The notes beneath the pieces were generated by a model. That model saw only the letters and a program-made list of their open reading frames with translations. It did not search any database and was not told where the DNA came from. This document shows positions 29,644-37,926 of a stretch of DNA of 64,000 nucleotides, piece by piece. Every line of letters begins with the position of its first letter. The first letter of the stretch is position 1. Position numbers and translations under genes: made by a program. The stretch covers positions 1 to 64,000 of IMG/VR virus record IMGVR_UViG_3300006841_000093. One strand, written 5' to 3'. Origin of the DNA: a virus.

Positions 29644-30636
29644 ATGCGAATTATTGATGATACTAAATTGGATTTTAGTGATGTTTTAATTACCCCCAAA
29701 AGATCTCAACTTACCTCACGCAAAGAAGCAGAACTCTCCAGACATTTTACCTTCAAACATTCAAATCACACTTGGACAGGAATTCCTATAATTGCGGCCA
29801 ATATGGATCATACAGGAACAATTGCTATGGCACATGTTCTTATGGAATATCCTATGCTTACAGCACTATGTAAGTTTGTTGAATCTTCTGAGTGGGGATG
29901 GAACAAAAATATAATAAGAACAGTCGGATTAGATCAAAATTTGGATGAACTACCTTATATGTCTGACTCGGCGCCATGGATTTGTCTTGATGTGGCGAAT
30001 GGATATACAGAACGATTTAATGATTATGTTGCATTAATGAGAGAACACGAAGCAACCAAAGGAAAAATAATCATAGCAGGAAATGTATGTACACCAGAAG
30101 CAACTGAACAAATAATTTTAGCAGGAGCAGATATTGTAAAGATAGGAATAGGTCCGGGCTCTGTTTGTACTACTCGTAAAATGACAGGGATAGGATATCC
30201 ACAATTATCTGCAATAATAGAATGTGCAGACGCGGCACATGGATTAGGTGGTCACATTGTTGCAGATGGTGGATGTACAGTAGTAGGAGATATAGCAAAG
30301 GCTTTTGGTGGTGGAGCAGATTTTGTAATGTTAGGTGGTATGTTAGCAGGACACAAAGAATGTGAAGGCGAAGTTGAAGATGATACAATGACATTTTATG
30401 GTATGTCTTCAGAAGAGGCACAACTCAAGTATTATGGTGAAAAGAAAACACATAGAGCATCAGAAGGAAAGAAAGTTCAAGTTCCATACAAAGGAAATGT
30501 TGCAGATACAATAGAAGAAATTTTAGGAGGATTACGAAGTTCTTGTACTTATGCCGGAGCACGAACATTAAAAGCATTACCAAAATGTTGTACATTTGTA
30601 AAAGTTAATAGACAATTAAATGAGGTATTTTCATGA
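29644..30636 (+). CDS. guaC: GMP reductase
   Basis: 'KLDFSDVLITPKRS', 'IIAANMD', 'LDVANGY', 'GIGPGSVCTTR', 'FYGMSS', 'RASEGK'. Confidence 0.93.
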   Translation: MRIIDDTKLDFSDVLITPKRSQLTSRKEAELSRHFTFKHSNHTWTGIPIIAANMDHTGTIAMAHVLMEYPMLTALCKFVESSEWGWNKNIIRTVGLDQNLDELPYMSDSAPWICLDVANGYTERFNDYVALMREHEATKGKIIIAGNVCTPEATEQIILAGADIVKIGIGPGSVCTTRKMTGIGYPQLSAIIECADAAHGLGGHIVADGGCTVVGDIAKAFGGGADFVMLGGMLAGHKECEGEVEDDTMTFYGMSSEEAQLKYYGEKKTHRASEGKKVQVPYKGNVADTIEEILGGLRSSCTYAGARTLKALPKCCTFVKVNRQLNEVFS

Positions 30637-31091
30637 GTGTAGATTTATGGTATGGATGGAGAGAAATGCGAAGAGATGTAAATACTCTTTGTAGAGAAAT
30701 AACATTAGATAAATTTAATCCTGAAGTTGTAGTAGGAATTTCAAGAGGTGGACTATTACCAGGCGTTATGATGTCACATTGGATGGAAAAACCATTTAAA
30801 CCAATTAAAGCGGCACTTAGAGATCATCCCGAATGGGAAGATTATTTACCAAGAAAAACAGATAAGCGTGTTTTAATTGTAGATGATGTATGTGATTCTG
30901 GTGAAACTTTTCATAAAATGAGAAACCACATTACAGAAAGAGCCAATGGAGTAGATGTTAGATTTGCTACTCTTTGGTGGAATAATGAGTGTAATTTTGA
31001 ACCTCATTATTATGCACAGCAATGTGCAAAGGATTCAGAAAATATCTGGATTCATTTCCCGTGGGAGAATTGGTGGAATTCTCCTAATTAA
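30633..31091 (+). CDS. Phosphoribosyltransferase (xanthine/hypoxanthine-guanine PRT-like)
   Basis: 'VVGISRGGL', PRPP-binding 'VLIVDDVCDSGET', 'WIHFPWE'. Confidence 0.85.
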   Translation: MSVDLWYGWREMRRDVNTLCREITLDKFNPEVVVGISRGGLLPGVMMSHWMEKPFKPIKAALRDHPEWEDYLPRKTDKRVLIVDDVCDSGETFHKMRNHITERANGVDVRFATLWWNNECNFEPHYYAQQCAKDSENIWIHFPWENWWNSPN

Positions 31092-31116
31092 CAATAAAAC
31101 TCGGAAGGAGTTAAAT

Positions 31117-32205
31117 ATGAAGAAAATTATTGCTATTTTAGCAGTTACGGCTCTTGTTGTAACTACTGGAATAATGGCAGTTGGTAAAAAAGTACCTTCA
31201 GTTGGTTATGTTTTAGTGGGACCAAAAAACGATGGTGGTTGGTCAATGAGACATTATCATGGTTTCATGTCCTTAAAAAAACATGGTTATAATGTATCTG
31301 GTGTTGAAATGGTGCCAGAAGCAGAATCAACAAAAGTATTCCGAAAATTAGCACGAAAACATGATATTGTTTTTGCAACATCTTTCGGTTATATGGATCA
31401 CATGTTGAAAGCTGCAAAGAAAGATTCTAGTACAGTTTTTATGCACGCCACAGGATATAAGGGTAATGATACAAATATGGACAACTACGTTTGTCATTCA
31501 TTCCAAGCACGATACCTCACAGGAATTGCAGCTGGAATGTTGACAAAAACAAATAAGATTGGTGTAGTTGGTTCACACCCAATTCCTGAAATTATTCGTA
31601 ACATTAATGCTCTAACTATTGGAGCCCAAACAGTAAATCCAGACATTGAAGTGAATATCGTATGGATTAATTCGTGGTTTGATCCGCCTAAAGATATGGA
31701 TGCGGCCAAAGCACTTTTGGAATCTGGAAATGATATACTTTATACAACAACCGATTCACCTAGTGTAGTTTCTCTTGCTCAAAAAGCATGGAAAACTGAG
31801 GGTAAGGAAGTATGGAGTATGGGCAATGATGCACCTATGGGAAGTAACGGCCCAGACAGATACATCACAGGAATGATGTTTAATTGGAATGTTCTTTACA
31901 AACATATAGTTGATCAACTTGCAGAAGGTAAACTTCAAATGAATCAACGTTGGGCATGGGGATTACAAGAAAATTGTGTAGCTCTATCGCCGTGGGGTAA
32001 AAATGTTCCAGGTGATGTAGTGAATAAAGTTGAAACTATCAAGATGCAATGGATTCAAGATGATCTAGGTACATACTTTCCTTTTGATCAAGGAGTTACA
32101 AAAGCAGATGGTAGTACAGTTGGTAAAGGTGAAATTGCAAGACCTCAATTAGAAACTATGCAATATTTTGTCAAAGGAGTGGCTTCACCATTTCCTGTAA
32201 AATAA
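31117..32205 (+). CDS. BMP/PnrA-family purine-nucleoside substrate-binding protein
   Basis: Signal peptide; 'DGGWS..HY', 'VFATSFGYMD', 'YLTGIAAG.LTKTNKIGVVG', 'WINSWFDPPK'. Confidence 0.9.
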   Translation: MKKIIAILAVTALVVTTGIMAVGKKVPSVGYVLVGPKNDGGWSMRHYHGFMSLKKHGYNVSGVEMVPEAESTKVFRKLARKHDIVFATSFGYMDHMLKAAKKDSSTVFMHATGYKGNDTNMDNYVCHSFQARYLTGIAAGMLTKTNKIGVVGSHPIPEIIRNINALTIGAQTVNPDIEVNIVWINSWFDPPKDMDAAKALLESGNDILYTTTDSPSVVSLAQKAWKTEGKEVWSMGNDAPMGSNGPDRYITGMMFNWNVLYKHIVDQLAEGKLQMNQRWAWGLQENCVALSPWGKNVPGDVVNKVETIKMQWIQDDLGTYFPFDQGVTKADGSTVGKGEIARPQLETMQYFVKGVASPFPVK

Positions 32206-32208
32206 TAA

Positions 32209-32244
32209 TTGGGGATGCCCTCATGGATGAGAAATTCCCCCCAA
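32209..32244 (+). other. Intergenic stem-loop between the BMP and permease genes
   Basis: TTGGGGA...TTCCCC outer stem enclosing a CTCAT-GG-ATGAG hairpin. Confidence 0.45.
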
Positions 32245-32263
32245 AAGAAAATGAAAGGTTAAT

Positions 32264-33397
32264 ATGGAAGGTCTGTTAGAAAGCATTTTAACAGCGGTTG
32301 CGGTGGTGATTAATGGTATACCTCAAGGGATTTTAGCACTATCTTTTGGGTTTGCCGCCTTTCCTACTGCAATAGCATTCGTTATTGGTATTATAGGATC
32401 AATAGCATTTGCTTCAGTAGCAACTATTTCGTTTCAAGCAGAAACGATTACATTAGCCGGTACTTTAGGTAAAACTATGAAAGAGAGGTTATCTCTCATA
32501 TTTTGGGGTGCCGCATTATTGTTGATTCCGTCATTGCTAGGAATGAACGAAGCACTTGTACAGTTTATCGGTCCGATTGTTGTCACATCGATGATGTGTG
32601 GAGTTGGATTGATGCTTGCAAATGTGTCAATAGATTTGTTTAATTCAGAAAAATGGACAGGCATAGTCTCTATGGTTAGTGCCTTGGCTGTTTGGTTTTG
32701 GACAAAAGATTTGGCATGGACAATTATTTCTTCTGTACTTATTTCTACTGCATTTTACGTTTTACTTAAACAAAATGCAATGTTACGAGAAACATTGGGA
32801 GTAGAAATAGAAGAGATTGAAGTTGATAAGTCAAGAGAAAAATTCACTACAGGAAATATTGAGTGGAAGTTTTGGACAAATAAAAATATTGTTTTAGGCG
32901 CATTATCTCTTGCGTGTCTAAACATTGGTGCAAATATCTCATTTGGTAAGATTACAGGATCTATTGCGGGTGCAAATACAAATATAGACCATTTAGCAAT
33001 TTATTCAAGTCTTGCAGACATGGGATCTGCATTCTTTGGTGGTGGGCCGGTTGAGGCAATCATCTCAGGAACTGCTGCAGCTCCAATGCCTATAGTTGCA
33101 TCTTGTATTATGATGGGAATTATGGCAGTCATACTTTTGACTAAATTACTTCCTGTTATTGGACAATATGTTCATCGTGCATCTATTGCGGGATTTCTTT
33201 TTGTCTTAGGAGTATTCGTTACTTTCATGACAAACATTAATGGTGCAATAGCTCAAGGTGGTGAATTTGCTGGCCCATACGGATTCGGTCCAATGGGAAT
33301 GGTAATTGGTGCAACCGCCTTTGTAACTATGAAGTGGAATCCTTTTTATGGATTAGTTGCAGGATTTGTTACTCAAATGATTTTTGTGGGAGCATAA
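32264..33397 (+). CDS. NCS2/AzgA-like nucleobase permease
   Basis: Highly hydrophobic, about 10-12 TM; 'FGGGPVEAIISGTAAA'; purine-gene context. Confidence 0.7.
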   Translation: MEGLLESILTAVAVVINGIPQGILALSFGFAAFPTAIAFVIGIIGSIAFASVATISFQAETITLAGTLGKTMKERLSLIFWGAALLLIPSLLGMNEALVQFIGPIVVTSMMCGVGLMLANVSIDLFNSEKWTGIVSMVSALAVWFWTKDLAWTIISSVLISTAFYVLLKQNAMLRETLGVEIEEIEVDKSREKFTTGNIEWKFWTNKNIVLGALSLACLNIGANISFGKITGSIAGANTNIDHLAIYSSLADMGSAFFGGGPVEAIISGTAAAPMPIVASCIMMGIMAVILLTKLLPVIGQYVHRASIAGFLFVLGVFVTFMTNINGAIAQGGEFAGPYGFGPMGMVIGATAFVTMKWNPFYGLVAGFVTQMIFVGA

Positions 33398-33952
33398 ATG
33401 GAAACGTATACTCTTAACGTAGCAGGTCTACAACGAGAGTTACCCAAAGTACAAATTAATGACGAGCTCGCAATAGCGAGCTTTGTCATGTTTGGTGACA
33501 CTCAGTTGATAGAATCTTGTGCAGAAGCAATTATTTTACATGCAGATTTTCCAAATCCTGTAAGTCAAATTGATATTTTGTGTTCGCCTGAAGCAAAATC
33601 AATTCCTTTAGTTCATGCTGTTGCGAGAAGATTAAATGTAGATTATGTGATTGCAAGAAAATCTGTTAAAGGATATATGTCTGAACCAATGGTTGAGAAA
33701 GTTCAATCTATCACGACAATAGGAGCTCAAACTCTTGTACTTGATAAGAGTGATGTTGAAAAATTAGAAGGTAAAAATATTTGTATAGTTGATGATGTTG
33801 TATCTACTGGTGGTTCAATTATTGGATTAGAAAATATGTTAAAAAAGATTGAATGTAATATAGTATGTAAAGCGGCGGTCTTATTGGAAGAGGCCGGTTA
33901 TGATAAAGATGATCTAGTGTATCTAGAAAAATTACCAATTTTTAAAGTATGA
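33398..33952 (+). CDS. Adenine-PRT-like phosphoribosyltransferase
   Basis: 'PEAKSIPL', 'IARKSVKGYM', 'ICIVDDVVSTGGS'. Confidence 0.88.
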   Translation: METYTLNVAGLQRELPKVQINDELAIASFVMFGDTQLIESCAEAIILHADFPNPVSQIDILCSPEAKSIPLVHAVARRLNVDYVIARKSVKGYMSEPMVEKVQSITTIGAQTLVLDKSDVEKLEGKNICIVDDVVSTGGSIIGLENMLKKIECNIVCKAAVLLEEAGYDKDDLVYLEKLPIFKV

Positions 33953-34338
33953 TTGATTTATTTCAAAAGGTAGATTTCAAATCCCACGCAGGATTAGATT
34001 TGAAATGGAAAATCGAAATGGATGCACTTTCACATGGAGAGTGGGAGTGTATTGCTCAAATGATTATGGAACTTTCTCCCCCATTTAAAGAAGCAATTGG
34101 AATTCCTAGAGGTGGTAATATACTAGGAAAATTAATGAATAAACACGGCACAGGAAAAAGAGAAGATCCAATATGTATTGTTGATGATGTCCTTACTACA
34201 GGCGGATCAATGAATGAATTTAGAACAAAGAGACATTGGAGAAACCCATCTAAGTACATTGGATGGGTAGTTTTTGCTAGATCAAAACCTCCAGATTGGG
34301 TAACTGCCCTTTTTCAAATGCCATCAACTACTAAATAG
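33949..34338 (+). CDS. Short orotate-PRT-like phosphoribosyltransferase
   Basis: 'FKSHAGLDLKWKIEMDAL', 'GIPRGG', 'IVDDVLTTGGS'. Confidence 0.75.
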   Translation: MIDLFQKVDFKSHAGLDLKWKIEMDALSHGEWECIAQMIMELSPPFKEAIGIPRGGNILGKLMNKHGTGKREDPICIVDDVLTTGGSMNEFRTKRHWRNPSKYIGWVVFARSKPPDWVTALFQMPSTTK

Positions 34339-34559
34339 TTTTTTATGGCTGCGGGGGTAGGATTCGAACCTACAGATTTTCTGCCAACAACAGATCGCGT
34401 TTGCCGGTTTCGCCACCCCGCAGTAAGTTTTTCAGCTCTTTTCGTTTGTTCTTCTAATGTTAGTTTTCCTAATTCACGTGCTCCTCTATTTAATTCCTCA
34501 ATAACTTTATAAATATCGTTTGGCTCATAAATTGGAATAACTTTCTTACTCTTCATCAT
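34314..34559 (-). CDS. Hypothetical protein whose 3' half reads through the tRNA-like element
   Basis: ATG overlaps the end of the AsnRS-like gene; no stop before the tRNA. Confidence 0.45.
   Translation of the reverse strand: MMKSKKVIPIYEPNDIYKVIEELNRGARELGKLTLEEQTKRAEKLTAGWRNRQTRSVVGRKSVGSNPTPAAIKNYLVVDGI
34346..34422 (-). tRNA. Atypical tRNA(-like), anticodon GTT (Asn)
   Basis: TGCGGGG/CCCCGCA acceptor, G73, encoded CCA, T arm GTAGG-TTCGAAT-CCTAC, D arm GCG..CGC; anticodon arm ATCTG-TTGTTGG-CAGAA has an A-A mismatch and G37. Confidence 0.7.
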
Positions 34560-35433
34560 TTTTAAGAATCAAATTAGCACGTTTCATTGCACTAATCATT
34601 CTAGTTACACCGATTCCGCCCCCATATCTAGGTATAAAATCGTGTGATAAAAATTCATCGAGTTCAGCTTCTACTCTTTCTTTTCCGAATAGATTAAATA
34701 ACAAGTCTGCATAACCGCCTTCAGAGATAGTATAGAATTGTTTTCTCATTTCATCAACATCTGTACCACGTTCAGCACTACCGATAGTTTCCATGCCTCC
34801 CATGATAACATCACATTTATTAGCAAGCTTATGTTGTTTTTTTACATCCATTTCACCAAGTTTCATATTCCAAAAAGGACTTGTAGATTGGGGAAAATGT
34901 GTTAGAAAAAATACATCACCATATTCTTGATACATTTCTTCTTCATGGTGGGCTTCTAATTCTGAGCCAGTATATTTTGCTAATACACTCTGATAAAATC
35001 CGCCAGGAAAATCTTCAGTATACATATTTTTTTCAATTCCGGCTTTAAATCCAAGATGTTTACAAAGATCATTTTCCATTTGAAGAAGATCCTCAAAATC
35101 ACCAGGAGCTTCAAATTCAAACATAGGAAAAATTAATTCATGTCTCCCCTCTTTTGGATTTTGTTCTTGTCGATATGAAGTTGATAAACAATAACATCCA
35201 GCAAGTTCAGGTCTTGTCAGTAGTTCATATTCTAACCACATTTGACCAGTTTGAGGAAGTGGCCAGATTTGTCCTGAATATTCGTATGTAGCAACAGTAG
35301 TAGGATCTTCACATGCTGCTAAAATAGATAATCTGTTTTGGGTATGTACTTCTTGAAATCCTCTATCATCAAAAAAGGATCGTAGTTGGCGAGTTACTTC
35401 TGTGAAATCATAAGGTGATATAATTGAGCTCAT
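34546..35433 (-). CDS. Class II aaRS catalytic-domain paralog (AsnRS/AspRS-like, archaeal-type asparagine synthetase-like), no anticodon-binding domain
   Basis: Motif 2 'SYRQEQNPKEGRHELIFPMFEFE', 'ETIGSAER', motif 3 'PRYGGGIGVTRM'; only 295 aa. Confidence 0.8.
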   Translation of the reverse strand: MSSIISPYDFTEVTRQLRSFFDDRGFQEVHTQNRLSILAACEDPTTVATYEYSGQIWPLPQTGQMWLEYELLTRPELAGCYCLSTSYRQEQNPKEGRHELIFPMFEFEAPGDFEDLLQMENDLCKHLGFKAGIEKNMYTEDFPGGFYQSVLAKYTGSELEAHHEEEMYQEYGDVFFLTHFPQSTSPFWNMKLGEMDVKKQHKLANKCDVIMGGMETIGSAERGTDVDEMRKQFYTISEGGYADLLFNLFGKERVEAELDEFLSHDFIPRYGGGIGVTRMISAMKRANLILKNDEE

Positions 35434-35486
35434 TTCTCCTTTCCAAAAAAATAATCACTAGTGAGCTTTCAGTAGAGATTTCTTTT

Positions 35487-35494
35487 TATTTATA
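35487..35494 (-). promoter_or_regulatory. T4-type late promoter on the minus strand for the AsnRS-like/tRNA unit
   Basis: TATTTATA on the + strand is TATAAATA on the - strand, about 55 nt upstream of the ATG. Confidence 0.6.
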
Positions 35495-35506
35495 AAATTT
35501 GATTTC

Positions 35507-35534
35507 TTGACAAAATGGAAAACTATGATATAAT
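35507..35534 (+). promoter_or_regulatory. Sigma70-like promoter (TTGACA-N16-TATAAT)
   Basis: TTGACA at 35507, TATAAT at 35529. Confidence 0.8.
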
Positions 35535-35563: not shown

Positions 35564-36529
35564 ATGCGATTAAAATCTAACAAAGTACCACACGGACAAG
35601 ATATATTGAACCCAGAATGGCCAGATGCTAAATGGGATGTTGGTGGACTGTTTGTACATGATGATAATATTTTTCAGCTTTTAGATAATATAAAGCAAAG
35701 ATATGATTGTGTATTACCAATTACTTCAGTATTTGGATGTTATAATGTGAGATGGCAGGGAGGTAGAACCGCCTGTACTTCACCTATTAGTAATTATAGT
35801 GGATGGACACCAGAAGATTTAATTAGACAATATAACGATAGAGGAATCGGAGTTACATTTACTTTTTCCAATACTTTAATCAAAGAAGAACATTTATCAG
35901 ATCCAAGTTGTAATTATTTGTTAGATATTTTAGCAACACAAGGATATGAAAATAATGCAGTTGCTATTACTTGTGATATTTTGTCAGATTACATTAGAAA
36001 TAAATGGCCACATGTAACACAAAAAGCATCGATTGTAAAACTAGCATCAGAAATGCCTAAGAGAAGAACATTTGAATATTACGAAAGTTTATTTGAAAAA
36101 TATGATAAAATATATTTACATCCAGATGATAATCTTAATCTTAGACTATGTGAAAAAATAGCAGAATCTGGAAAAGTTGATAAGTATGAACTTTTAGTGA
36201 ACGAAAAATGTACTATAAATTGTAGTATACGAAAAGAACATTATGATGAAACTTCTTCAGCAGTTATAGAAGGATGGCATGGAATGTTTAATTTTTCTAA
36301 TGTTGATTTTATTCATAATCCTAGTCACCCCAATAGTATATGTGAAAGGTGGACAAAATCAGACTTAAGATCGTGTGTGCTCTCTAAGGCCGAATTTAAA
36401 GAACTTTATGATATGGGATTTCGAAATTTTAAATTACAAGGAAGAGATGCACCGTGGGGATTTGTAAATTATAATATTTCAGATTGGTTAGTAGAACAAG
36501 ATACCATTGCACCAATGTTAAATTTTTAA
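35564..36529 (+). CDS. U32-peptidase-related (Fe-S hydroxylase-like) protein
   Basis: 'LLVNEKCTINC', late Cys residues and C-terminal 'FKLQGRD' resemble the U32 family 'LKIEGR'. Confidence 0.55.
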   Translation: MRLKSNKVPHGQDILNPEWPDAKWDVGGLFVHDDNIFQLLDNIKQRYDCVLPITSVFGCYNVRWQGGRTACTSPISNYSGWTPEDLIRQYNDRGIGVTFTFSNTLIKEEHLSDPSCNYLLDILATQGYENNAVAITCDILSDYIRNKWPHVTQKASIVKLASEMPKRRTFEYYESLFEKYDKIYLHPDDNLNLRLCEKIAESGKVDKYELLVNEKCTINCSIRKEHYDETSSAVIEGWHGMFNFSNVDFIHNPSHPNSICERWTKSDLRSCVLSKAEFKELYDMGFRNFKLQGRDAPWGFVNYNISDWLVEQDTIAPMLNF

Positions 36530-36530
36530 T

Positions 36531-37715
36531 ATGTTAAATTTAAAATCATTCATTGTGGATGATGAGTTGATAATTGATAAACCAAATTGGTATAAACTCA
36601 AAAATGAGTATTCACAACAAGAATTGAAAGATGCAATATCTGATACTATTGAGGGCTTACCATTACCATTATTTCCAATTACCGAAAAAGAAGCTAAAGA
36701 AGAATTTGAAGAATTAGTAAAGTTTGATGCAAGAACTTTATTAACTAAAGACAATCTGTATTCCAAAGCAGATTACAAGTATGAGTTGTCTCATTGGTAT
36801 TTAAAAAATAGTGTAGTGGGTAGAAAATCATCTAATTATTTTCATCAACTTGCTAGGTGGAGAGTACAACATGCAAGACATACTAGCCCCTATCGTTCTT
36901 GGACTATTAAAAAATTCCATCAAACATTTTTAAATCCTCTATGGACATTAAGTATGCCAGAGGTAAATAGTAAATATTTAAGAATGTGTATTCAAATGAG
37001 AATGTATATGGCGGCACAATATCCACCAGCAGTAGCAAAATCTCTTTACAATTTATTTGAAGCAAAAGATGTTTTAGATTTTTCTATGGGGTGGGGTGAT
37101 AGATTGGCAGGATTTCACGCCTCTAATGCAGAAAGTTATACAGGCATTGATCCTAATGAAGAAGTGATGAAAAATTATCCAAGACAAAATGAACTTTATG
37201 AAACTTATAAGAAAACAAAATTTATACAAGCTCCTGCTGAAGATGTGGACTTGAGTGATAGTGAATTTGATATGGTCTTTACATCGCCACCATATTTTCA
37301 TGTTGAAAGATATGCAGATGATGAAACACAATCTTGGAAACGATATGGAAAAGATATAGATGTTTGGTTAGGAGATTTTCTATTTCCAGTTTTGGAAAAA
37401 TGTTGGAACTCCTTAAAGGATGGTGGAACAATGATTGTCAATATAGCAGATGTATATGCAACAGATAAAGGACAAAATAAATCTTATGTATCTATTTGTG
37501 ATCCTATGAACGATTTTATAAAAACCCTTCCACAATCAGAATATACGGGATGTATCGGACTACAATTAAATCGAAGGCCTGGAAGTAATAATGATAAGCC
37601 AGAGTCAAAGAATAAAAAAATTATTGAACCAATGTGGGTATGGAAAAAAGGAGATGATAGGACATTGGATCAAATAATTGATGATACTTCCCCCTTAAGC
37701 AAATTTTTTCAATAA
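36531..37715 (+). CDS. Amino-DNA methyltransferase-like protein (SPPY type), copy 1
   Basis: Motif I 'DFSMGWGDRLAG', motif IV 'FTSPPYF'; C-terminal SPLSKFFQ. Confidence 0.85.
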   Translation: MLNLKSFIVDDELIIDKPNWYKLKNEYSQQELKDAISDTIEGLPLPLFPITEKEAKEEFEELVKFDARTLLTKDNLYSKADYKYELSHWYLKNSVVGRKSSNYFHQLARWRVQHARHTSPYRSWTIKKFHQTFLNPLWTLSMPEVNSKYLRMCIQMRMYMAAQYPPAVAKSLYNLFEAKDVLDFSMGWGDRLAGFHASNAESYTGIDPNEEVMKNYPRQNELYETYKKTKFIQAPAEDVDLSDSEFDMVFTSPPYFHVERYADDETQSWKRYGKDIDVWLGDFLFPVLEKCWNSLKDGGTMIVNIADVYATDKGQNKSYVSICDPMNDFIKTLPQSEYTGCIGLQLNRRPGSNNDKPESKNKKIIEPMWVWKKGDDRTLDQIIDDTSPLSKFFQ

Positions 37716-37841: not shown

Positions 37842-37926
37842 GGGGAGGCTGAGCACGTGGTGAGCCCAACGGACTGTAAATCCGCCGGATATTCCTGTGA
37901 AGGTTCGACTCCTTCTCTCCCCACCA
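37842..37926 (+). tRNA. tRNA-Tyr(GTA)
   Basis: GGGGAGG/TCTCCCC acceptor, anticodon loop CTGTAAA, long variable arm, GAAGG-TTCGACT-CCTTC, A73 + CCA. Confidence 0.93.

Follow-up and report, generated by a model that had tools for sequence, protein, structure and literature searches.

The window analyzed here, a stretch of 64,000 nucleotides (nt) comprising positions 1 to 64,000 of the IMG/VR virus record IMGVR_UViG_3300006841_000093, carries on its minus strand a small cassette in which the gene for an enzyme derived from asparaginyl-tRNA synthetase (AsnRS) precedes a conserved mini-protein and an unusual tRNA with the anticodon GUU. Members of the enzyme family are fused to, or encoded beside, the late pyrimidine enzymes PyrD and PyrF, and aspartate transcarbamoylase (ATCase, encoded by pyrB) is missing from the enzyme-bearing cellular genomes that were scored; the enzyme probably acts at the entry to pyrimidine synthesis. 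In phages the enzyme is paired with a dedicated tRNA, which is a phage-specific accessory. The six-step pathway for making pyrimidines de novo is regarded as universal; that view would change if its first steps are indeed replaced by this family, which occurs in Bacteroidota and ultrasmall bacteria, in giant viruses, and in phages that are among the most abundant in the ocean. The analyzed genome, a 134.5-kb record rated complete, is that of a marine T4-like phage, with a tail sheath closest to those of pelagimyophages and the Methylophilales phage Melnitz (~45–48% identity). Beyond the label "tRNA ligase, T4-GC 194" for the enzyme family (Sullivan et al., 2010; PMC3037559), no description of the family or of the enzyme/tRNA pair was found in the literature searched.

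The Family Is Tied to Pyrimidine Synthesis

Relatives of the enzyme were collected in a metagenome protein search that returned at least 8000 proteins. Two close relatives are fusions, one joining PyrD to the enzyme (P0124, 54% identity to the window enzyme) and the other joining the enzyme to PyrF (P0135, 49%). With 49–54% identity to the fusions and the same invariant residues, the window enzyme belongs to the same family, PHROG 29758. Cellular members are 53–62% identical to it. In eight Bacteroidota loci (Aureispira, Saprospiraceae, and Chitinophagales) the gene immediately preceding that of the enzyme is pyrD, and pyrF is nearby. Among phages, a convergent pyrF follows immediately after the cassette in eight contigs and lies upstream of it in a ninth. 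The analyzed genome itself encodes a pyrD-like gene (56.8 bits) and pyrF (94.9 bits) at ~109.0–110.4 kb, not adjacent to the cassette. This pair (G000:C1 ~109029–110385; L090 801–2157) consists of a 240-aa DHO_dh-like protein overlapping the start of a 220-aa orotidine monophosphate (OMP) decarboxylase; it lies ~75 kb from the cassette, outside the window, and a SET-domain open reading frame (ORF) is found just upstream.

Gene content points in the same direction. Ten enzyme-bearing genomes were scored, nine from Bacteroidota (2.3–7.8 Mb) and one from a bacterium of the candidate phyla radiation (CPR). All ten encode pyrF and two encode carB, whereas pyrB was found in none and a dihydroorotase scoring above cut-off likewise in none. 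Among 70 sampled Bacteroidia that lack the enzyme, 67 encode ATCase, a contrast with a Fisher p of 1e-9 that is not corrected for phylogeny.

A further gene order is seen in 16 Patescibacteria loci (L096, L099, L104, L105, L110, L111, L119, L123, L126, L131, L133, L135, L137, L138, L158, and L166), where the enzyme gene is preceded by a gene of the dihydrouridine synthase (Dus) family and followed by dnaX, in most cases with both as direct neighbors. Dihydroorotate dehydrogenase is a relative of Dus, itself a flavoenzyme. This order may be functional or may be only the synteny of a lineage.

The Enzyme Is a Stand-Alone AsnRS-Derived Core

The enzyme gene (34546–35433, minus strand) encodes a class IIb catalytic core of 295 aa without an anticodon-binding domain. 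An earlier sequence-only reading had described it as an AsnRS/AspRS catalytic-core protein of this kind (AspRS, aspartyl-tRNA synthetase), and profile searches bear out that description. Its sole Pfam match is the catalytic domain tRNA-synt_2 (profile positions 26–296 of 308, E = 1.3e-19), it matches PHROG 29758 with an E-value of 2.7e-102, and its AlphaFold2 (AF2) model has a pLDDT of 94.3. The N-terminal OB-fold is absent: the alignment covers only approximately residues 230–530 of human AsnRS, and no flanking ORF supplies a separate OB-fold. Alignments to AsnRS chains show class II motifs 2 and 3 and the AsnRS-type amino-acid pocket signatures to be intact, the motifs kept being QTGQMWLE, SYRQE..GRHE, ETIGSAER, and GGGIGVTR. 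The protein nevertheless falls below every curated equivalog cut-off tried in NCBIfam, including those for asnS (33.8 vs. 342.6 bits for TIGR00457 and 32.8 vs. 414 bits for NF003037).

In structural comparisons the best match is AsnRS (PDB 8TC8 and 8H53 from human, 2XTI from Brugia, 1X54 from P. horikoshii, and 9SH8 from T. thermophilus), with Z scores of 26.5–27.4 and a root-mean-square deviation of 2.3–2.5 Å over ~252 residues at 22–25% identity. The leading AsnRS structure (8TC8, Z 27.4) ranks above archaeal AspRS (26.5), the archaeal asparagine synthetase AS-AR (23.3–23.9), and EpmA (23.4). Enzyme and AsnRS have in common class II motifs 2 and 3, the signature Q..Q..LE, and an RH pair in motif 2. 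Unlike AsnRS, the enzyme lacks the N-terminal OB-fold anticodon-binding domain and has a shorter insertion between motifs 2 and 3, while its family has an invariant ACEDP motif and a cysteine, C82, of its own; the genomic context of the family is pyrimidine synthesis and that of AsnRS is translation. About 95 positions, ACEDP and C82 among them, show conservation of 93% or more in a comparison that spans phages, giant viruses, Bacteroidota, and CPR bacteria. Four distant members (P0245, P0189, P0190, and P0268) have lost the arginine and glycines of motif 3 (e.g., RFSGSI..S.L) and may be catalytically dead or repurposed.

Other synthetase cores without an anticodon domain are known, including EpmA (PoxA), a lysyl-tRNA synthetase paralogue that modifies EF-P, and GluQRS, which like EpmA serves a new acceptor; the structural matches to this group have Z scores of 22.9–23.4. 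The window enzyme differs from EpmA in its Asn-type pocket, in lacking any link to EF-P, and in its score of ~20 bits against NCBIfam cut-offs of 264–287. A closer parallel is AS-AR, or "AsnRS2" (PDB 3P8T, 3REU, 3REX, 3RL6, and 1NNH), a stand-alone core of ~294 aa that gives a clear structural match and has a metabolic rather than a tRNA-charging role, as is proposed here for the enzyme. The sequence-only reading had cited this archaeal synthetase as a parallel, but it is not the closest relative: AS-AR falls below both AsnRS and AspRS in structural and sequence match (Z 23.9 vs. 27.4 for AsnRS; identity in the structural matches 20 vs. 24%; profile E-value 8e-8 vs. 7.6e-16), and, unlike the enzyme family, it has no link to tRNA or pyr genes. 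Because AS-AR ranks below both synthetases, the enzyme is an independent truncation.

The same comparison bears on a simple explanation of the cassette as an ordinary asparagine supply, in which an ammonia-dependent asparagine synthetase of the AS-AR or AsnA type would be accompanied by a spare tRNA-Asn serving an AT-rich, Asn-rich late proteome. The core-only architecture and length are those of AS-AR (294 aa; Z 23.5–23.9), and a common asparagine theme could account for the linkage of enzyme and tRNA. AsnRS is still the better match, however, and Pfam AsnA (PF03590) is not matched by the enzyme. Three enzyme-bearing genomes from Bacteroidota and CPR (G004, G005, and G031, one of them CPR) already encode AsnB, and neither the missing ATCase and the PyrD and PyrF fusions nor a non-canonical anticodon loop beside normal tRNA-Asn genes (see below) would be explained. 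A supply of this kind is very unlikely.

Enzyme and tRNA Form a Dedicated Pair in Phages

Searches of IMG/VR gave at least 594 stretches related to the enzyme locus, and linkage to a tRNA was counted in the best 80 loci. With a covariance model of the tRNA family, a copy was detected after the enzyme gene, in the same orientation, in 66 of these 80, and three of the remainder stop at the contig end. The pair is also found in cultured phages: the Prochlorococcus phages P-SSM2, P-SSM5, and P-SSM7 encode relatives of the enzyme (54–56% identity, annotated "tRNA ligase"), each followed directly and on the same strand by a tRNA(GUU) of 87–88 nt as called by ARAGORN. When the search was reversed, starting from the signature of the short-arm tRNA, 19 contigs were recovered; the enzyme gene lies just upstream in 18, the other being cut at the contig end, and in none of the 18 testable contigs did the tRNA occur without the enzyme. 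On the enzyme tree, presence of the tRNA is clustered, requiring 8 changes vs. 45.6 in shuffles. The proposal of a dedicated enzyme/tRNA pair made in the sequence-only reading is thus upheld for the phages, together with the conservation of the pair in related phages that it had called for.

Outside phages the pairing breaks down, and adjacent tRNAs are absent at giant-virus contigs and at true cellular loci. The sequence-only reading would have given way had relatives proved to be plain asparagine synthetases unlinked to tRNAs, and one half of this was found: cellular and giant-virus relatives are without the tRNA, but the enzyme is unlike a plain asparagine synthetase. Three of the tRNA-less relatives (L069, L075, and L077, from IMG/VR GVMAG and other contigs) lie on giant-virus contigs that also encode a major capsid protein of nucleocytoplasmic large DNA viruses and a Ser/Thr kinase, and in L077 the enzyme gene adjoins that for the small subunit of ribonucleotide reductase. 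Two uncultured huge phages of 735 and 484 kb (L004 and L005; LR756501 and LR756508) encode divergent enzymes with 41–51% identity; no odd tRNA was detected nearby and no pyrF in either record.

The tRNA Keeps Charging Elements and Loses Decoding Elements

The cassette tRNA (34346–34422, minus strand) is 77 nt long with an encoded CCA. ARAGORN calls it tRNA-Asn (gtt), and it scores 51.3 bits against the Rfam tRNA model (gathering score 29; E = 4.4e-8) and 83.2 bits on a family covariance model built from 25 cassette tRNAs. It has a U1-A72 pair, G73, a D stem of 3 bp plus an A13/A22 apposition, an A27/A43 mismatch in the anticodon stem, an anticodon loop UUGUUGG that places G at position 37, and a variable loop of 5 nt. 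The full cloverleaf with these features had been read correctly from the sequence, and ARAGORN, one of the programs proposed as a check, recognizes it. One item in the earlier description falls away, the listing of U1 among the aberrations: U1-A72 together with G73 is the normal signature of bacterial tRNA-Asn (PMC9976931) and is present in canonical phage tRNA-Asn as well. Asparagine identity in bacteria resides in the anticodon and G73, GatCAB selects Asp-tRNA(Asn) through U1-A72, and in yeast N6-threonylcarbamoyladenosine at position 37 (t6A37) hinders aspartylation (PMC9976931).

Across 25 relatives the pairs of the cloverleaf are kept at 99.6%, and compensatory changes occur in 16 of 20 pairs, a level reached by none of 500 shuffles. 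U1-A72, G73, and GUU are invariant in the family, and CCA is encoded in nearly all copies. The body is leucine-like in its D arm, and phage tRNA-Leu genes score 58–68 bits on the family model. In the window tRNA the variable region is 5 nt, but elsewhere it extends into long arms, most relatives measuring 85–111 nt. The family thus has the GUU, G73, and U1-A72 cloverleaf of an elongator tRNA-Asn, but neither the class I body, with its 4-bp D stem and variable loop of 4–5 nt, nor the expected CUGUUAA-type loop with U33 and A37 (G37 in the window). Loops were compared between 49 distinct family tRNAs and 18 other tRNAs from the same phage loci. Among the family members, 34 have U at position 37, 11 have G, and only 4 have A; 6 of the 49 lack U33. 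All 18 controls, by contrast, have both U33 and A37 (p = 8e-13 for A37). To judge from these patterns, the elements kept appear to be those read by host charging enzymes and the elements lost those that the ribosome needs.

Three phage genomes (G001, G002, and G015) carry a textbook tRNA-Asn elsewhere in addition to the odd cassette copy. The textbook copies are 75–76 nt long by ARAGORN, have a 4-bp D stem and a CUGUUAA loop, and score 63–73 bits against Rfam vs. 41–42 bits for the odd copy. The coexistence of a textbook tRNA-Asn with the odd loop indicates that the cassette tRNA is not simply there for the reading of AAY codons, in agreement with the suggestion from the sequence alone that it is aimed at something beyond ordinary decoding. 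Non-ribosomal aminoacyl transfer, one of the functions put forward there, is a possible role.

The strict linkage might also reflect a private, anticodon-blind AsnRS/tRNA pair, in which the enzyme would charge the tRNA through its acceptor stem and Leu-like body for the decoding of AAY codons in late translation, independently of the host asparagine system. The enzyme has the complete set of class II motifs and an AsnRS-like pocket, and U1-A72, G73, CCA, GUU, and a canonical T arm are maintained in the tRNA. Moreover, three CPR genomes (G003, G005, and G006) have the enzyme and no canonical AsnRS, although all three have GatB. This conservative reading, which would make a mini-AsnRS and a tRNA-Asn built on a leucine-tRNA frame a compact natural candidate for an orthogonal pair, leaves the PyrD and PyrF fusions, the synteny with pyrD and pyrF, and the absence of ATCase unexplained. 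A position 37 occupied by U or G is unfavorable to decoding, as is the loss of U33; a normal tRNA-Asn is already present in three of the phages, and the ~95 positions conserved from phages to giant viruses of eukaryotes include none specific to tRNA-linked enzymes. On balance a private decoding pair is unlikely.

Phage tRNAs are known to counter tRNA-cleaving defenses, and the cassette tRNA had also been proposed as a decoy for host anticodon nucleases; as a decoy or as a replacement for cleaved GUN tRNAs, it would be serviced by the enzyme. Conservation of GUU while the rest of the loop varies fits such a role. A replacement tRNA should decode well, however, and this one looks poor at decoding; among the genes seen adjacent to the cassette there was no nuclease and no repair enzyme (Pnk or Rnl), and both the strict tie to the enzyme and the pyrimidine link of the enzyme are left unexplained. 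Nothing else in the analysis favors the decoy, and we consider it highly improbable.

A Conserved Mini-Protein Runs into the tRNA

Between the enzyme gene and the tRNA lies the frame of a conserved mini-protein of ~45 aa (34425–34559, minus strand), in which a K-x-IP-I/V-Y motif precedes a helix. It begins within the last codons of the enzyme gene. Its frame continues through the tRNA to give an ORF of 81 aa (34314–34559, minus strand) that spans the whole tRNA, as had been noted from the sequence. Dismissal of this ORF as noise was considered and rejected, its first ~45 codons being the conserved mini-protein. Conservation is at the protein level, in 15 loci with diverged DNA: K6, P9, Y11, L23, and E29 are invariant or nearly so, and the N-terminal segment reads K-x-IP-I/V-Y-K-N-G-x-G-I-H before the helix. 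The AF2 model has an extended N-terminus and a helix at residues 16–44 (pLDDT 79), and no Pfam or PHROG family was matched. In every locus that has the mini-protein its start overlaps the stop codon of the enzyme gene. In relatives with a long-arm tRNA the frame stops at a UGA formed by tRNA positions 8–10; the window tRNA has G10 (UGG), and its frame therefore reads through to 34314. With the stop set by tRNA positions 8–10 and G10 in the window, the overlap of ORF and tRNA is real but incidental in length. In P-SSM2 and P-SSM7 there is no room for a mini-ORF between enzyme and tRNA. At other loci a C2H2-like zinc-finger peptide (C-x2-C ... H-x3-H, with weak matches to Pfam zf-C2H2 and zf-C2HE) is fused behind the mini-protein or stands alone between enzyme and tRNA (L010, L012, L019, and L065, in the spacer; L018, L035, L044, and L046).

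That the mini-ORF frame always ends within the tRNA, at the UGA of positions 8–10 or deeper in the subfamily of the window, raises the prospect that the tRNA acts only at the level of RNA beside a pyrimidine ligase, as a processing or 3′-end signal or as a switch between mutually exclusive RNase P cleavage and translation of the overlapping mini-ORF, with no need for aminoacylation. Its fixed place after the coding part and the lack of tRNA-specific residues in the enzyme agree with this. A processing signal, however, needs no invariant GUU, G73, U1-A72, and encoded CCA across such divergence, and in P-SSM2 and P-SSM7 the tRNA is retained although the mini-ORF is missing; a role at the RNA level only is quite unlikely.

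The mini-protein could alternatively be the substrate, the enzyme aminoacylating or adenylylating it as EpmA does EF-P, or in the manner of amino acid:carrier-protein ligases, with the tRNA secondary. Translational coupling, the invariant Tyr and near-invariant Lys in the extended N-terminus, and the comparable structural match of EpmA (Z 23.4) speak for such a modification. The enzymes of P-SSM2, P-SSM7, giant viruses, and cellular genomes are nevertheless indistinguishable from the others in the absence of any mini-protein, and at some loci the zinc-finger peptide takes its place. Modification of the mini-protein therefore has very little probability.

Proposed Role of the Cassette

Taken together, these features would fit a late-transcribed, three-part phage module. 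The enzyme would be an adenylate-forming ligase of AsnRS descent acting at the entry to pyrimidine synthesis and replacing the carbamoyl-phosphate/ATCase route, perhaps by using ATP to convert an asparagine-type substrate into dihydroorotate or the compound directly preceding it. Asparagine and bicarbonate might be converted to dihydroorotate, or carbamoyl-aspartate might undergo an ATP-driven ring closure. The mini-protein, translationally coupled to the enzyme, would probably be a subunit or adaptor. The tRNA would be a non-decoder that keeps GUU and G73, for AsnRS or a non-discriminating AspRS, and U1-A72, for GatCAB, and that has lost A37, where t6A is formed, along with U33 in some of the relatives. 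If host-read elements are retained and A37 and U33 dropped, the tRNA would receive asparagine by the tRNA-dependent route of the host and could bring it to the enzyme as a private carrier, in hosts whose asparagine is made only on tRNA. We infer the reaction, the charger of the tRNA, and the hand-over of asparagine from the features described above. As a whole, the chain of a pyrimidine-entry ligase supplied with asparagine by a host-charged, non-decoding tRNA is plausible but falls somewhat short of an even chance. Its most specific form, an unrecognized entry that leads from asparagine to dihydroorotate with neither carbamoyl phosphate nor ATCase, combined with the hijacking of host tRNA-dependent asparagine synthesis by a non-decoding tRNA, is doubtful.

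Known systems offer partial precedents. In tRNA-dependent asparagine synthesis (non-discriminating AspRS with GatCAB, the transamidosome) the elements read are GUU, G73, and U1-A72, all of which the phage tRNA keeps, and the phage tRNA lacks the t6A37 site, the modification of which blocks aspartylation in yeast (PMC9976931). Unlike the tRNA-Asn of that route, it has a Leu-like class II body, a non-canonical anticodon loop, and a gene beside that of a synthetase-like ligase; its loading by the host would follow from the retained elements.

Transfer RNAs also serve metabolism directly, as in the staphylococcal tRNA-Gly used by Fem transferases, the Glu-tRNA of tetrapyrrole synthesis, and the substrates of cyclodipeptide synthases. 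The proposed phage tRNA would resemble these in logic only, the off-ribosome delivery of an activated amino acid; none of them is known to concern pyrimidines, to use an enzyme derived from a class II synthetase, or to depend on a private tRNA borne by a phage. If the proposal is true, the host translation apparatus would make a substrate for phage nucleotide production, and a viral tRNA working off the ribosome as a private substrate carrier would be a use of tRNA not seen before and would add a new class of auxiliary metabolic gene. Two of the phages with the cassette, P-SSM2 and P-SSM7, are cultured Prochlorococcus phages, so the enzyme/tRNA pair is directly testable.

Several observations weigh against this scheme. 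On the enzyme side, the Bacteroidota enzymes form a single clade, and the ATCase contrast ignores this shared ancestry. P-SSM2, P-SSM7, and the complete 177-kb phage genome G001 encode neither pyrD nor pyrF, and host enzymes would consequently have to complete the pathway. Two Saccharibacteria genomes (G003, locus L123; G007, locus L168) have the enzyme with no pyrD, pyrF, or ATCase detected, a gene content that does not fit an exclusive role of the enzyme in uridine monophosphate (UMP) synthesis. The reaction itself is a guess, as the formation of dihydroorotate from asparagine would bypass the alpha-carboxyl chemistry of a synthetase. On the tRNA side, no residues were found that separate tRNA-linked from tRNA-less enzymes; given this and the tRNA-less giant-virus and cellular members, the enzyme may have no contact with the tRNA at all. 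The tRNA is fully canonical in its acceptor stem, T arm, and CCA, and A37 persists in the four family members noted above, so that some decoding is possible. Finally, the premise of a host that makes asparagine only on tRNA was examined in a control cyanobacterium, S. elongatus, where GatB is present and AsnA and AsnB are absent; the absence of asparagine synthetases was established there only and not for SAR11, OM43, or Prochlorococcus.

Promoter, Leader, and Downstream Hairpin

A T4-type late-promoter-like octamer, TATAAATA (35487–35494, minus strand), lies 53 nt upstream of the ATG of the enzyme gene, a distance suitable for the putative late promoter that the sequence-only reading had placed here. 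Among 65 distinct phage loci, 29 have TATAAATA 23–63 nt upstream of the enzyme gene, those of P-SSM2, P-SSM5, and P-SSM7 included, while many others have CTAAATA or GATAAATA instead. Position and recurrence among relatives agree with the promoter assignment, but the abundance of the octamer does not add to it, TATAAATA occurring across the window at the level of chance (11 found vs. 9.7 expected). The 5′ leader that follows (35434–35486, minus strand) contains a conserved AAAAAGAAATC motif, a small hairpin, and the ribosome-binding site GGAAAGGAG. The AAAAAGAAATC motif and the hairpin arms recur in the leaders of relatives with different stem sequences, the two arms changing in concert from locus to locus (e.g., L007, L020, L024, and L034), although the window hairpin folds no better than shuffles (z 0.34); as a lead only, it could be a regulatory element. 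Beyond the other end of the cassette, ~80 nt past the tRNA and within the 3′ end of a convergent gene, a consensus scan found a 10-bp hairpin (34244–34268), in a region with three terminator-like sites vs. 0.9 expected. It is possibly a two-way terminator.

Host Labels and Neighboring Genes

Enzyme and odd tRNA also occur on contigs assigned to metagenome-assembled genomes (MAGs) of Methylophilaceae, Chloroflexota, Flavobacteriaceae, Bacteroidetes, and Legionellales (L094, L095, L116, L128, and L151), which are probably mis-binned phage. Host assignment from such labels (Methylophilaceae, Chloroflexota, Flavobacteriaceae, and Legionellales) was rejected, the contigs having the look of phage sequence binned with bacteria. 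The Methylophilaceae-binned case, at 80% identity, could hint at a host of the OM43 type.

The local context of the cassette in the window is general nucleotide salvage. A block on the plus strand (29644–34338) that reaches the cassette encodes a GMP reductase (474 bits), an XPRT-like phosphoribosyltransferase, a BMP-family lipoprotein-like protein, a 377-aa membrane protein without a family, a phosphoribosyltransferase of the APRT subfamily (218 bits), and a 129-aa phosphoribosyltransferase-like ORF. The neighboring phosphoribosyltransferases were considered as candidates for PyrE and set aside, being of purine-salvage types (APRT-like and XPRT-like) and not clearly PyrE. On the other side of the cassette, a perfect sigma-70 consensus (35507–35534, plus strand; TTGACA, 16 nt, TG-TATAAT; 12/12) points away from it and precedes a 321-aa ORF (35564–36529, plus strand) that matches no Pfam or PHROG family. 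A 394-aa protein with a methyltransferase domain (36531–37715, plus strand) begins 1 nt after this ORF. The genome has only two tRNA genes, the cassette tRNA(GUU) and a tRNA-Tyr(GTA) at 37842–37926 (plus strand), the latter with a canonical CUGUAAA loop and a modest Rfam score of 35.6 bits.

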